The notes: a model not told the origin generated them from the letters alone. 64,000 bases of DNA from an uncultured Verrucomicrobiae bacterium (GCA_963818965.1 CAWFUG010000007.1:1-64000), one strand, 5' to 3'. Shown: positions 7,163-37,752, counted from the stretch's first letter. Numbers and translations: made by a program.

Positions 7163-7285
7163 CCCCATCATTCCATTCTGAATATATACAATTTCACCAC
7201 AGAGAGGGAAAACCACAGAGATGAAATTTTTTAACATGAATTTCCTCTCTCTGTGGTGAACTTCGGCTATTTATGGAACAAGGCC
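7163..7285 (+). repeat. Composite intergenic element, copy 1: flank X + ACCACAGAG-arm core + flank Y
   Basis: CCCCATCATTCCATTCTG...TTTCACCACAGAGAGGGAAAACCACAGAG...CTCTGTGGTGAA...TTCGGCTATTTATGGAACAAGGCC; homologous to 15204-15346 and 27611-27783. Confidence 0.9.
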
Positions 7286-7317
7286 CTGCTTTGGTGTAAG
7301 TTTATTAAATTAATATG

Positions 7318-7346
7318 TTGACACGCAATTAATCTGCAAATAACAT
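7318..7346 (+). promoter_or_regulatory. Sigma66/70-type promoter for the MOMP-like gene
   Basis: TTGACA-17 nt-TAACAT. Confidence 0.6.
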
Positions 7347-7378
7347 GAAACTAAGTGTTGTATTTAGTTTGAGGGTTT

Positions 7379-8536
7379 ATGCAATTGGAATTAAAGCGTG
7401 TGCGTGGTTTGTTCATTCTCTTAAGTCTTGGACTTTCTGGTTCTTGTTTTTCTGCGAATGATGTGTTTGAAGGAGAAGAATGCGTCATTTTGCCTGTGGG
7501 ATGTGGATTTTGTGGCGACAATGCGCACAAGCCCGTAGCAGCTAGCAAAAAACAAGCGAAGGCGAATCAGCAGAAAACGCCTATCTGTACTCATTTTCCT
7601 CACATTTTTGACCCTCACAGTTTAAAGGGGGATAATGGCCTTTGGGTCGAAGTCGATGCTCTTGCTTGGCAATCGAATGTGGGCAGCCTCAATTACGCTG
7701 TCGAGAGCAATAGCACCTCTTCTGTCTCTCATGGACATGTTAAGGATCTCGATTTCAAGTGGGATTGGGGAATCCGCGCGGGATTGGGATACAAGCTTCC
7801 CCATGATAAGTGGGATATTTTCATCGATTATACCTATGTCCATGCCCATGCAGATGCGCATGCTCATAAAGAGAATGGAGCGCTCTATCCCAATTGGGCG
7901 ACGGCTTTTGGATTTACGGGGGATAGTTTTTATGCCACACGTGCCAATGCGCATTGGCATGCTAATTTGAACATGGGGGATATCGAGCTCGGCAGGAACT
8001 GTTTTGCAGGGAAGTGGCTGACGCTGCGTCCTTTCTTCGGGGTTCGAGGCCTTGTGATCGATCAGAACTACCGTGTGAAGTACAGCGGCGGGACGGCGTT
8101 CCCCGGTGAGGAATCTAAGATCTCTTTGGATACCGATTTCTGGGGCGTGGGCTTGCGTTTTGGCGTAGACTCTCTTTGGGGATTGGGTAAGGGATTTGGA
8201 ATCTACGGGAATGGCTCTTTCTCCCTTCTCTCGGGGAATTTCGACGTGCATGAGAAGGAAAAGCTCAAAGTGATGAATGTCGATTTGATGAAAGTAAAAC
8301 GAGATGTCGAAAATGTCGTGGTAACAGCGGACCTCGCGCTAGGGTTGCAATGGGATTATCTATTTTCAAAAGACCGGTACCATTTTGGAATGAAACTCGG
8401 CTGGGAATTCAATTTATTTTGCGATCAAAACCAATTATTTAATTTTATGAGCACCGCGAACCCAGGAGCGATCCGCTTCATCCAAGATGACCTCTCCTTC
8501 CAAGGGGTCACGGTAGGGGTCCGCTTCGACTTTTGA
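7379..8536 (+). CDS. MOMP-like (Lpg1974 family) pore-forming outer membrane protein
   Basis: Signal peptide; motifs WDWGIRAGLGY..PHD.WD, D.ELGR, LRPF.G.R, GWEF..F.DQNQ; C-terminal RFDF beta-signal. Confidence 0.85.
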   Translation: MQLELKRVRGLFILLSLGLSGSCFSANDVFEGEECVILPVGCGFCGDNAHKPVAASKKQAKANQQKTPICTHFPHIFDPHSLKGDNGLWVEVDALAWQSNVGSLNYAVESNSTSSVSHGHVKDLDFKWDWGIRAGLGYKLPHDKWDIFIDYTYVHAHADAHAHKENGALYPNWATAFGFTGDSFYATRANAHWHANLNMGDIELGRNCFAGKWLTLRPFFGVRGLVIDQNYRVKYSGGTAFPGEESKISLDTDFWGVGLRFGVDSLWGLGKGFGIYGNGSFSLLSGNFDVHEKEKLKVMNVDLMKVKRDVENVVVTADLALGLQWDYLFSKDRYHFGMKLGWEFNLFCDQNQLFNFMSTANPGAIRFIQDDLSFQGVTVGVRFDF

Positions 8537-8547
8537 GTCCACGTGGG

Positions 8548-35377: not shown

Positions 35378-35622
35378 AAGAATACCAAAGGACACGAGAG
35401 ACCCTCACGAATGAATCGCTGAAGGGGTTATTTCGCAGCAACTTCGATCTCGCCAATCAAGCCATCCGGCTCGCTAAGTTTTACATCCGCTCAGGGCATG
35501 AGGTTTCTTTGACAAAACTGCTCAATGAGATCAAACGCAACCCGAGCGAGCAGTATTTAAAAGATCTTCAGAGAATGGAAGAAGAGGAAGATCTCGACTC
35601 AGATAAGTATCCTGACAGTTAA
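35374..35622 (+). CDS. rpoZ: Probable RNA polymerase omega subunit (divergent chlamydial type)
   Basis: 82 aa directly after gmk (the usual rpoZ position); LTNE.L..LF.S.F.L.N.AI motif; acidic tail. Confidence 0.7.
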   Translation: MKEYQRTRETLTNESLKGLFRSNFDLANQAIRLAKFYIRSGHEVSLTKLLNEIKRNPSEQYLKDLQRMEEEEDLDSDKYPDS

Positions 35623-35634
35623 TAGGCTATACTC

Positions 35635-37662
35635 ATGACAGAAAAGGTTCTCGTCACTTGCGCTTTTCCTTACGCAAATGGTTTTTTGCATTTCGGCCAT
35701 ATCGCTGGTGCTTACCTGCCGGGCGATTGCTATGCGCGCTACGAACGGCTAAAGGGAAAAGAGGTCCTCTTCGTCTCCAGTTCAGACGAATATGGAATGG
35801 CGGTCACATTGAGCGCGGAACTCGCAGGACGAACCCCCAAAGAGCAGGTCGACTTTTTCCATCATGCGATTAAAGACTTTTTCAAACAGATCAACATCAG
35901 CTTCGATCACTACTCCCGGACGACCTGGCCGGGACATGCCGAAACCACACAGGAGTATTTTAAAGATCTCTACGACAACGGCTACATCGAAGAGAGGATC
36001 ACAGAGCAACTCTATTCAGAAAAAGATCACAAATTTCTCGCCGACCGCTATGTCATCGGTACCTGTCCTAAATGCGGTTACCCGGAAGCGCGAGGAGATG
36101 AGTGTCAAAAATGTGGAGCGAGCTACGAAGCGACAGATCTACTCAGCCCCCGCTCTAAACTCACCCAATCTCCTCTCGTTCTAAAAAAGACCAAGCACTG
36201 GTTCCTGCGGTACGATCTCTTCAAAGAGCAACTCCTCGAATGGATCTCTCAAAAACACTGGAAGCCCAACGTCTTGAATTTTGCTAAGAGCTACATCGAA
36301 GAGATAAGGCCAAGAGCGATTACCCGCGATATGAGCTGGGGAATTCCCGTACCTCTTCCCGGCGCAGAAGGGAAAGTCATCTACGTCTGGTTCGATGGTT
36401 GTGTCGGCTACATCTCTGCGTGTCGGGAATGGGCACAGAAGATCCACCGCCCTGACGCTTGGAAAGAGTACTGGTGCGACCCGAAGACCAAACTCGTCCA
36501 GTTCATCGGTAAAGACAATATCCCTTTTCATGCCGTCTTTTTCCCTGCGATGACAATGGGACAAAATCAGCCCTATAAGATCGTCGACGAGCTCCCTGCA
36601 AATGAATTCTACAATCTCGAAGGAAGGCAATTTAGTAAATCAGATGGTTGGTTCATCGACATCGATTCCTTCTTCAAAAAGTTCACAGCCGATCAGATCC
36701 GCTACGCCATCGCTTCCAACGCCCCCGAGACACAGGATGCAGAGTTCACTTGGAAAGACTTCCAAGCGCGCTGCAATCACGAACTGCTCGGCAAATACGG
36801 TAATTTCGTCAACCGCACCCTCGTCTTCGCACAAAAATACTGTTCTGGCACAATCCCTGAATTGAACAACCTCAATGCCCAAGATCGGGAATTCTTAGAC
36901 AAGGTCAAACAGCTAGCGCAAGAAGCCGATACCGCCTATGCGCATTTTCGCCTCAGAAAGGCCTCCCAGATCGTTATGGAATTAGCGCAGCTGGGTAACG
37001 TCTACTTCGATGCAAAAAAACCCTGGGCCCTCGCTAAATCTTTAGAGACACAAGAAGAGATGCACCGCGCGATCGGCTGCTGCCTGCAATGCATTGCCAC
37101 GCTCGCTCTCATCTCCTCTCCCATCGTGCCCACAGCCGCTGAGAAAATCTGGAAAATGTTAGGTCAGCAGAGCTCCCTTGAAAAAGGTAATTGGACGCAC
37201 ATCGTCAATACCCCTCTCAATCCCCATACCCCACTTCCTGAGCCAGAGATCCTCTTTGCCAAGATCGAAGATGAAAGCATCCAAGAAGAGATCGATAAGC
37301 TCAAACCTAAATCGACACCCGCCGCCGCTTCTCCTTCAGACTCGATCGAAATCGATGCTGTGAAAAAACTCGATTTGCGCGTAGCTCAGGTCCTGCACGT
37401 CGAACCGGTTGCAAAGAGCAAAAAACTGCTCAAATTCACGGTCGATCTCGGAACAGAGCAGCGCACCATCGTCTCTGGAGTCGCAGAGCAGATCACAGAT
37501 CACACCTCTTTGGTAGGGCGCAAACTCTTGGTCGTCACCAATCTGAAACCCGTTACCCTGATGGGGATCGAAAGTCAGGGGATGATCTTCAGTGCAAAGT
37601 GGGAAAACCACTGCGAGTTTCCCTCTTTCATGGATGTGCCCCTAGGGACTCCTGTCCTCTAA
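35635..37662 (+). CDS. metG: Methionine--tRNA ligase with a C-terminal tRNA-binding domain
   Basis: PYANG.LHFGH, two CxxC knuckles, GKDN..FH, FSKS, LDLRVA. Confidence 0.98.
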   Translation: MTEKVLVTCAFPYANGFLHFGHIAGAYLPGDCYARYERLKGKEVLFVSSSDEYGMAVTLSAELAGRTPKEQVDFFHHAIKDFFKQINISFDHYSRTTWPGHAETTQEYFKDLYDNGYIEERITEQLYSEKDHKFLADRYVIGTCPKCGYPEARGDECQKCGASYEATDLLSPRSKLTQSPLVLKKTKHWFLRYDLFKEQLLEWISQKHWKPNVLNFAKSYIEEIRPRAITRDMSWGIPVPLPGAEGKVIYVWFDGCVGYISACREWAQKIHRPDAWKEYWCDPKTKLVQFIGKDNIPFHAVFFPAMTMGQNQPYKIVDELPANEFYNLEGRQFSKSDGWFIDIDSFFKKFTADQIRYAIASNAPETQDAEFTWKDFQARCNHELLGKYGNFVNRTLVFAQKYCSGTIPELNNLNAQDREFLDKVKQLAQEADTAYAHFRLRKASQIVMELAQLGNVYFDAKKPWALAKSLETQEEMHRAIGCCLQCIATLALISSPIVPTAAEKIWKMLGQQSSLEKGNWTHIVNTPLNPHTPLPEPEILFAKIEDESIQEEIDKLKPKSTPAAASPSDSIEIDAVKKLDLRVAQVLHVEPVAKSKKLLKFTVDLGTEQRTIVSGVAEQITDHTSLVGRKLLVVTNLKPVTLMGIESQGMIFSAKWENHCEFPSFMDVPLGTPVL

Positions 37663-37665
37663 GTC

Positions 37666-37752
37666 AATAATTTTCTCCTCTTCTTCTCTGTGGTTTCCCA
37701 TCTCTGTGGTAAAAAAGAATATTACCACAGAGATGAAGAGGAGAAAGTTATT
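37666..37752. repeat. ACCACAGAG-arm hairpin (outward-junction form) after the metG stop
   Basis: CTCTGTGGTTTCCCATCTCTGTGGTAAAAAAGAATATTACCACAGAGATG, inside an outer IR TTTCTCCTCTTC/GAAGAGGAGAAA. Confidence 0.9.

Follow-up and report, generated by a model that had tools for sequence, protein, structure and literature searches.

The 64,000-nucleotide stretch of DNA analyzed here, called the window throughout, corresponds to positions 1-64000 of contig C7 in a 2.24-Mb genome assembly of an environmental chlamydia (G000; 12 contigs, completeness 87.85%). Between positions 7,163 and 37,752 it carries six intergenic repeats whose arms are built from the 9-mer ACCACAGAG and its complement CTCTGTGGT, and the question raised by this locus is what kind of system these repeats represent. 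A preliminary description proposed that they mark the boundaries of gene cassettes. We conclude that the arms belong to a genome-wide family of hairpins, comprising about 155 loci, and are probably not gene-cassette boundaries. One part of the family would consist of miniature inverted-repeat transposable elements (MITEs) of an IS5-family insertion sequence (IS), and another part of orphan arms of the type that surrounds genes for GxxExxY proteins. The repeats of the window are best regarded as mobile, selfish hairpin DNA and not as a novel means of exchanging genes; half of them, the inward copies, have an ordinary explanation as MITEs of a resident IS.

A Genome-Wide Family of Arm Hairpins

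The arms consist of the word (AC)CACAGAG repeated directly with a period of 16 nt, beginning with ACCA, and we define an arm pair as ACCACAGAG-N7-ACCACAGAG. The window holds 20 exact copies of the 9-mer or its complement; when up to one mismatch is allowed there are 35, compared to 9.5 expected and a maximum of 19 among 100 shuffled sequences. All six repeats that had been listed were recovered by this search, and their division into two orientation classes stands. Type I copies have arms facing inward around a loop, which is 26 nt long in 25 of the 50 complete inward copies genome-wide, in agreement with the conserved spacer of about 25 bp noted earlier. Type II copies are permuted: a right arm leads into a left arm, and in the window the two are connected by an A/T-rich linker of 10-13 nt. 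All six copies fold as long hairpins, with energies between -30.3 and -60.4 kcal/mol when treated as RNA. These copies, and one gene that lies among them, are the following.

7147..7285, no strand assigned: inward (type I) copy 1, a MITE whose long-arm end is truncated or overwritten, with MITE flank modules on both sides; arms at 7196-7220 (+) and 7249-7257 (-), whole arm span 7196-7257
15204..15344, in the orientation opposite to copy 1: inward copy 2, with MITE modules on both sides; arms at 15232-15311
23335..23412, no strand assigned: permuted (type II) hairpin 1, without IS ends; arm span 23344-23404
23492..23911, + strand: orf139, a hypothetical protein gene with no Pfam match, between the first two permuted hairpins
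24195..24259, no strand assigned: permuted hairpin 2; arms at 24197-24257, perfectly complementary (N7 atgggaa/ttcccat)
27568..27784, no strand assigned: inward copy 3, about 216 bp long and complete as a MITE; arms at 27635-27710
37666..37752, no strand assigned: permuted hairpin 3, which begins 4 nt past the metG stop codon (37662); arms at 37686-37732

The same motif is abundant throughout G000. There are 541 exact 9-mers compared to about 16 expected, and 203 arm pairs compared to none for a control pattern in which the motif was reversed. Scanning the genome for the motif and sorting the copies by orientation, as had been suggested, yields 155 multi-arm loci (counted with one mismatch allowed) and a further 21 lone exact 9-mers, spread over all large contigs. 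The multi-arm loci divide into 96 inward, 33 permuted, 17 mixed, and 9 one-sided cases, and some form clusters in which arm orientations alternate (++--++--). Perfect complementarity between the N7 spacers of opposing arms is seen for 29 of 50 inward copies, compared to 9.1 when the pairings are shuffled, and for 12 of 18 permuted copies, compared to 5.8.

It is true of the window that no copy occurs after 38 kb, as had been remarked. However, with 1.8 copies expected there, finding 0 is not significant (P = 0.17). Before 38 kb the 6 copies exceed the expected 2.6 only marginally (P = 0.05), and the next copies lie just outside the window at C7:65116 and C7:67027. A search of the whole window against Rfam at gathering threshold returned a tRNA at 41424-41495 as its sole match.

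Inward Copies as MITEs of a Resident Insertion Sequence

Fourteen full-length inward copies align end to end and define an element about 174 bp long, whose termini are inverted and read GGCGTTGTTGC.TAA...TTATGCAACAACGCC. Modules belonging to its flanks are present on 62 of the 96 inward copies, the three of the window among them, and on none of the 33 permuted copies. The same termini bound an IS of 1136 bp that resides at C9:266874-268009 and lacks ACCACAGAG. Its left end is identical to the short-arm end of the MITE over 22 nt, and the right ends agree over the terminal 12-15 nt. The IS encodes a 330-aa DDE transposase (DDE_Tnp_1_5, PF13737, 1.5e-33; DDE_Tnp_1, PF01609, 7e-24) that is about 45% identical to the products of genes annotated as IS5-family transposases on plasmids. 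With this transposase as query, relatives were seen only as fragments in one genome (G045), and none were found in G046, G047, G048, or the same-genus comparison genome G001.

Target-site duplications accompany these ends. The IS itself is flanked by ATTCCAGAG and ATTCCAGAC, its own 9-bp duplication with identity at 8 of 9 positions. Among 31 pairs of terminal repeats spaced 100-1200 bp apart, the 9-bp flanks are identical at 8 or 9 positions in 13, and two further pairs match after a shift of 1 nt; when the right flank was moved by 15 nt as a control, no pair of the 31 matched. A target duplication of 9 bp is typical of the IS903 group. Two long pairs of terminal repeats in G000 enclose the IS itself and an unrelated block of three genes. 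Because the MITEs have ends matching those of the IS and carry 9-bp target duplications, we propose that they were spread by the IS transposase acting in trans. The structure of these elements can be read directly from the DNA, and their transposition is suggested by these hallmarks.

The three inward copies of the window are, judged by their sequence, MITEs of this resident IS5-family (IS903-like) element. Copy 3 is the clearest case. It is flanked by a 9-bp direct repeat (TTACGGAGG/TTCCGGAGG) and separates tadA from orf80, two genes that abut in G001, and thus the comparison presents a plain empty site, albeit in a genome of only about 70% DNA identity. The ends of this MITE contribute to both neighbors: tadA takes its final 10 codons and its stop from the element, and orf80 takes its ATG. 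Both genes remain open, with ends altered relative to G001. Copy 1 has a degenerate IS-type terminal repeat at its right end and is located between the gltA stop (7120) and the gene for an outer membrane protein (OMP; at 7379). The gene order and the promoter-proximal sequence of this interval are the same in G001, where the element is absent. Copy 2 begins with an intact terminal repeat, GGCGTTGTTGCAC, and its long arm is cut off after ...GAATGATGGGG, leaving no long-arm terminus.

Compared to known IS5-family MITEs, these elements are likewise short, noncoding, and multicopy, with ends identical to those of an autonomous IS, 9-bp duplications, and a DDE partner. They differ in that the core is a long, near-perfect hairpin made from a word array of 16-nt period, in that the arm hairpin also occurs in G000 without IS ends and in opposite polarity, and in that other palindromes are nested inside them. 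MITEs and REP-like hairpins are already known, and a MITE that has the arm hairpin of a nuclease cassette as its core is new. Among the papers searched, we found none that describes the link between GxxExxY genes and arms, this repeat family, or MITEs or palindromic repeats of its kind in Chlamydiae or Parachlamydia. Annotators of chlamydial metagenome-assembled genomes should expect such elements at the ends of genes. In the window, one MITE has changed where tadA stops and where the next gene starts.

At one locus of another genome (L174; G132:C3:97600-98900), a GxxExxY gene is followed by a right arm of CTCGGTG type and then directly by the IS-type terminal repeat TTATGCAACAAAGCC, which also bounds the MITEs of G000. 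From this layout it follows that arms of another word class are also found inside the ends of this IS.

Distribution of the Arms

Among 40 related genomes, the arm pair occurs only in G011, a member of a different genus, with 7 copies. When 401 genomes of the phylum were sampled, 18 carried it: 11 of 90 in family f1, 7 of 69 in family f5, and none in any other family. The two richest after G000 are G281 with 107 pairs and G207 with 26. The pair was also found in several other Chlamydiota assemblies, and a collection of genome contigs yields at least 121 stretches that contain it. Single matches in other phyla are within the range of chance (by our estimate about 17 expected for 18 fixed bases), and viral contigs contain no arm pair.

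Records titled Verrucomicrobiae or Verrucomicrobia (L040, L045, L047, and L107) contain the same MITE, and we considered and rejected a spread of the element across phyla. For L040 and L107, arm pairs at identical contig coordinates occur in genomes of f1, the family of G000 itself, and therefore at least these two records are taken to be chlamydiae of the same family under another label.

GxxExxY Genes and Their Arms

GxxExxY proteins form a very large family without known function, and a table in PMC3424549 enters the corresponding Pfam family, PF13366, as "Unknown." Tandem arms similar to those of the window had been said to flank such genes in other phyla, and a link between the two is borne out in other Chlamydiota genomes and in metagenomes. 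We examined 23 GxxExxY genes in 11 Chlamydiota genomes for arms in their flanks. Clear inverted word-array arms are present on both sides of 19 genes and on one side of 3; the only gene with none is that of G000. Words of CACAGAG type, spaced 9, 15, or 16 nt apart, occur at 7 of the 23, and the remaining genes use other words (CACCGAG, GCAGAG, CACGGAG, CAAAG, AACGAT, ATGATAT, and GGATAAT). The nearest protein usually shares the arm word, as seen for 6 of 7 genes with CACAGAG, 4 of 4 with CACCGAG, 2 of 2 with CAAAG, and 2 of 2 with AACGAT. In one of the Chlamydiota assemblies with the arm pair (L046/L154), the arms enclose a GxxExxY gene that contains a single in-frame TAG.

A larger sample gives the same picture. 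We collected 80 metagenome loci that encode relatives of one CACAGAG-armed GxxExxY protein and counted arms at the 68 loci for which both flanks extend at least 100 nt. At least two CACAGAG words upstream together with at least two CTCTGTG words downstream are found at 35 of these 68 loci. The proportion falls with protein identity to the query, from 16 of 17 loci at 85% or more, to 15 of 27 at 75-85%, and to 4 of 24 at 60-75%. In this last band CGCAGAG, CACGGAG, and CACCGAG take the place of CACAGAG. The GxxExxY gene is the sole cargo seen between the arms in the 23 loci of relatives and in the 80 metagenome loci. Because GxxExxY genes of Chlamydiota are almost always armed and the arm word shifts as the proteins diverge, the question arises whether each nuclease binds or cuts its own word.

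Gene-less forms connect these cassettes to hairpins. Inward copies without a gene in G042 (loops of 80-83 nt) retain GC-rich modules from the interior of two armed cassettes, L154 and L172, and are therefore cassettes minus the gene. To this extent the proposal that inward copies are empty cassettes holds for relatives of G000, although it fails in the window, where these copies are MITEs with IS ends. A junction of the permuted type lies directly next to the cassette of G041, a genome in which the permuted form has become a multiplied unit with a conserved 47-nt linker. In addition, five or six loci of G000 show the 9-nt-period form of the arm that is found around the GxxExxY gene of G041.

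On the basis of these observations we propose the following model. The arm word array of G000 is of the same kind as the inverted arms around one clade of GxxExxY nucleases (PF13366, PD-(D/E)XK fold), and gene and arms, which are inherited jointly there, would form a small selfish cassette. Loss of the gene would leave an inward hairpin, and a right arm coming to lie next to a left arm would generate the permuted form. The nuclease presumably recognizes its own word array and so drives insertion behind stop codons, and the arm hairpin of G000 would descend from the arms of such cassettes. Two layers can be distinguished in this genome. The first comprises about two thirds of the inward copies, namely the MITEs of about 174 bp in which the arm hairpin sits between IS terminal repeats and is probably moved by the transposase encoded on C9. 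The second comprises the other inward copies and all permuted copies, which lack IS ends and lie about 19 nt behind stop codons. For these, our guess is that they arose by the same insertion process as the cassettes at gene ends, possibly through a break made by the nuclease and repaired from another copy.

The most far-reaching form of this model is put forward only tentatively. It holds that ACCACAGAG arrays are the recognition arms of one GxxExxY clade, that gene and arms together are a previously undescribed selfish cassette that inserts behind stop codons, and that the word coevolves with the protein (CACAGAG, CGCAGAG, CACGGAG, CACCGAG). G000 might then represent an end state in which the cognate gene has been lost and more than 150 orphan hairpins remain, many of them remobilized within an IS5-family MITE. 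Compared to the cassettes of relatives, the elements of G000 have the same inverted arms with two to four copies of a short word, of which CACAGAG is one, and the same tight position behind stops, but they have no gene between the arms and many of them lie inside an IS-derived MITE. More generally, arms appear able to outlive their gene and to spread by means of a borrowed DDE transposase.

Five f5 genomes and G041 yielded CACAGAG-armed genes; the three f1 genomes examined yielded none. The arms of f1 therefore look like orphans that increased in number by other routes, one of which, the IS-derived MITE, can be demonstrated. GxxExxY genes are present in 15 of the 18 arm-bearing genomes compared to 44 of 141 other f1 and f5 genomes (Fisher P = 2.9e-5), a value that overstates the association because the genomes compared are kin.

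The single GxxExxY gene of G000 is located at C9:277040-277372 and lies in a 147-aa open frame (TIGR04256, 8.2e-36; PF13366, 2.5e-33). An arm-flanked GxxExxY gene had been among the things to look for in this genome, but the flanks of this gene contain no arms, and no arm pair of G000 encloses a GxxExxY gene. Because this sole gene is unarmed and belongs to another clade, the arms of G000 are orphans.

Several points weigh against our interpretation. G000 has no GxxExxY gene of the CACAGAG clade; its own protein is 42% identical to the members of that clade and is placed among the CAAAG-type proteins with support of 100/100. When remnants of other GxxExxY genes were sought in G000 by tblastn with 12 proteins and E values up to 1, only the known gene was recovered. 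G281 and G207 are rich in arms and have no GxxExxY gene, and therefore a high arm copy number does not need the nuclease. Coinheritance of gene and arms would by itself produce the correlation between clade and word, even if the protein recognized neither. Only the arms tie the G000 hairpins to an origin from cassettes, because the 26-nt loops of these hairpins have nothing in common with the interiors of cassettes. No target duplication was seen for the hairpins without IS ends. Filled and empty alleles within the species were likewise not seen, in a comparison that drew on one read set whose contigs break at the repeat. In this set (X1; DNA, with 6% of sampled words present, from a relative of about 95% identity), contigs of 150-400 nt end at the repeat near 23347 and provide no informative joints. 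Finally, the gene calls for G000 are crude longest-ORF (open reading frame) calls, with a cutoff of 120 aa for overlaps, and the assembly is incomplete.

Side observations were made on the same gene family. With a loose pattern, arrays of CAAAG type give 4+4 matches in G000 compared to 0+1 for a reversed control. An interval of 11 kb (C9:266874-277600) contains the IS, a tyrosine recombinase gene (274467-274955), the GxxExxY gene, and a nested palindrome (277435-277602), and may be an island of mobile DNA. A same-order relative with a 1.9-Mb genome (G034) has 67 GxxExxY matches, many of which are 81-aa C-terminal fragments or are interrupted by in-frame stops, a pattern suggestive of cassettes that multiplied in a burst and are now decaying. 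At L175 (G319:C1:1-1200), the segments that carry ACCACAGAG arms form tandem repeats on either side of a GxxExxY gene, with three copies upstream and, in the downstream flank shown, two complete copies and the start of a third.

Hairpins without IS Ends Lie behind Stop Codons

Nearly all members of the family are intergenic (152 of 155 loci), and the other 3 overlap ORFs of at least 120 aa. Distances to the nearest stop codon are short and similar for the two forms that lack IS ends, with a median of 19 nt for permuted copies (24 of 28 within 40 nt) and 18 nt for core-only inward copies (23 of 28 within 40 nt). The flanking genes of the loci are convergent in 53 cases, tandem in 76, and divergent in 23, compared to a background of 17%, 66%, and 17%.

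The permuted hairpins of the window illustrate this placement. Hairpin 1 has the layout CTCTGTGGT-N7/N8-CTCTGTGGT, a 10-nt A-rich loop, and ACCACAGAG-N7-ACCACAGAG, and its first arm word lies 22 nt past the ftsH stop (23322); it folds with -60.4 kcal/mol as RNA and -32.6 kcal/mol as DNA. Hairpin 2 is situated beyond an ordinary terminator-like hairpin (24279-24310) that belongs to pnp, a minus-strand gene with its stop at 24324. A lone 9-mer at 24332-24340, inside the coding end of pnp, is probably there by chance. In hairpin 3 the right arm is shorter by one 16-nt unit, and the palindrome continues outward (TTTCTCCTCTTC/GAAGAGGAGAAA).

One possibility is that the host uses these hairpins, such that they are retained mainly as stem-loops at mRNA 3' ends that protect the transcript or end transcription, as has been proposed for repetitive extragenic palindromic (REP) elements. 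The proximity to stop codons, the excess of convergent gene pairs (53 of 155 compared to 17%), the very stable stems (RNA folding energies between -43.6 and -60.4 kcal/mol in the permuted copies of the window), and the covariation of arm spacers, by which pairing is kept, are all consistent with such a role, as is an ordinary GC-rich stem-loop that G001 has in the same place after ftsH. We nevertheless regard host use as unlikely. Intrinsic (rho-independent) terminators have a T-run behind the stem, but none follows the permuted copies of the window or the others that we read. A terminator scan of 22800-38200 flagged no copy, but it admitted loops of at most 8 nt and so could not have caught the permuted form. 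Moreover, pnp retains its own terminator-like hairpin beside the repeat, 23 copies lie between divergent genes, 383 of the 401 sampled genomes of the phylum do without the hairpins, and a preference for insertion behind stop codons would predict their position equally well.

A second possibility, which we consider more doubtful still, is that the arms are live targets of the GxxExxY nuclease that G000 itself encodes, acting in trans as RAYT (REP-associated tyrosine transposase) enzymes do on REPINs (REP doublets forming hairpins). The gene is intact at 147 aa, the IS and an integrase gene lie within 11 kb of it, and G001 has neither arms nor a GxxExxY gene. However, its product belongs to the CAAAG-word clade rather than to that of the CACAGAG-armed proteins, the gene carries no arms of its own, and G281 and G207 hold many arms in the absence of any GxxExxY gene.

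Comparison with a Same-Genus Genome and the Gene-Cassette Proposal

The preliminary description viewed the arms as recombination sites, the inward copies as empty cassettes, the permuted copies as cassette junctions, and the enzyme as encoded elsewhere. We compared the window to G001, a genome of the same genus that has no arm pairs and is syntenic with G000 over mdh-gltA-OMP-...-radC. Three intervals are comparable, since the sites at 15228 and 37666 fall at ends of G001 contigs, one of which stops inside metG. Gene content breaks in one of the three, ftsH|pnp, and the other two are syntenic. At ftsH|pnp, G001 has three genes, two of them leucine-rich-repeat-like and one with a bilobed hydrophobic domain, in place of orf139, and none of the three has a tblastn match in G000.

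This interval speaks for the proposal, because orf139 is bounded precisely by a left arm pair (23380-23404) and by a right arm pair (24197-24221), with a permuted copy on each side, and what occupies this place in G001 differs. The difference fits the cassette idea as an anecdote, not as a test. The presence of GxxExxY genes between arms in relatives, the inner modules kept by gene-less versions, and the spacing of copies at 1.1-2.4 kb on several contigs of G041 also speak in its favor. Even so, we judge a gene-cassette system to be very unlikely. The sole cargo in all relatives' and metagenome loci is the GxxExxY gene itself, no other arm-bounded gene was found in G000, and the inward copies of the window have the ends and 9-bp duplications of IS-type MITEs. 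Four tyrosine recombinases pass the Pfam cutoff in G000, none of them on the contig of the window. In G041 as in G000, the neighbors of the copies are core genes in mixed orientation. The earlier remark that most copies sit beside accessory genes is therefore only partly correct, given that the window neighbors are mostly core genes, including gltA, ftsH, pnp, tadA, and metG, and that the OMP gene is syntenic in G001. Integron attC cassettes are similar in having imperfect palindromes at gene ends and in the idea of empty and filled units, but the copies described here are dispersed, have no integrase-linked array or co-oriented promoterless genes, and carry no cargo other than a nuclease gene.

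Comparison with Other Repeat Systems

REP and REPIN elements together with their RAYT genes, termed REPtrons, were reportedly described by Bertels and Rainey in 2011. An ordinary REP/REPIN family moved by a RAYT (Y1 HUH) transposase, which the intergenic inverted hairpin pairs, their high copy number, and their position after stops would suggest, is highly improbable, since no Y1_Tnp (PF01797) match was found in G000 at its 87.85% completeness (6 of 14 reference genomes gave matches as a control), the arm is a direct repeat starting with ACCA and not a small palindrome with a GTAG or CGTC head, and many copies bear DDE-type ends and 9-bp duplications. The RAYT or TnpA-REP gene that had been suggested as a candidate enzyme is thus not found in this genome.

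The family interpreted here as MITEs and orphan GxxExxY-type arms nevertheless resembles the REP/REPIN-RAYT system (compare PMC3733652). Both consist of dispersed intergenic hairpins in inverted pairs, and in the relatives of G000 a single small enzyme gene is bracketed by repeats that are also scattered without the gene. The differences lie in the enzyme, which has the PD-(D/E)XK fold of GxxExxY proteins rather than an HUH Y1 domain, and in the arm, where a word of 7-9 nt is repeated directly instead of forming a small palindrome and no GTAG/CGTC head is present.

In the bacterial interspersed mosaic elements (BIMEs) of Escherichia coli, units of alternating orientation are connected through short linkers of two types, which contain protein-binding motifs. 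The ++--++-- clusters of G000 are alike in their alternating units with head-to-head and tail-to-tail linkers, but the sequences are unrelated, and we have no evidence for protein-binding motifs in the linkers here. Rickettsia palindromic elements are likewise mobile palindromes of an obligate intracellular lineage that nest in one another. The G000 family differs from them in being almost wholly intergenic, with 3 of 155 loci overlapping ORFs.

Additional Features of the Window and Assembly

The product of orf139 has a bilobed hydrophobic stretch that, in our reading, may resemble those of chlamydial inclusion-membrane proteins, and the G001 gene adjoining pnp encodes a similar stretch. Another ORF, orf466 (37784-39184), has no Pfam match either. 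Beside copy 2, a TauD-family ORF (14420-14959) matches only positions 38-149 of the 267 in the profile, and because of this partial coverage it is probably a gene fragment.

Two other palindrome families are found near the arm repeats. A palindrome of about 215 bp (TATACCCGACGTGACTCAAAAGTTGGCC...) fills the OMP|DAO interval at 8543-8760, where G001 has about 1.1 kb with a 249-aa ORF and an overlapping 179-aa ORF in a sequence that includes an N-run. A fragment of the same TATACCCGACGTGACTCAAAAGTTGGCC family abuts copy 1 at 7124-7146. The other family, with the form TATACCCC(GCGCGC)...GGGGTATA, is repeatedly nested in the loops or flanks of ACCACAGAG elements. Its sites include the TATACCC...GGGTATA palindrome in the loop of copy 2 (about 15266-15290), the 47-bp TATACCCCGCGCGC... 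palindrome of copy 3 (27711-27757), and sites at C9:330554, C9:475366, and C11:406318. Palindromes in G000 thus tend to nest in palindromes.

Elsewhere in the assembly, contig C4 (22.2 kb) is 99.5% identical to its own reverse complement along 21.6 kb, and both of its ends match the end of C12 (C12:107355-115382), also at 99.5%. This arrangement reflects either a large inverted duplication or an assembly artifact.

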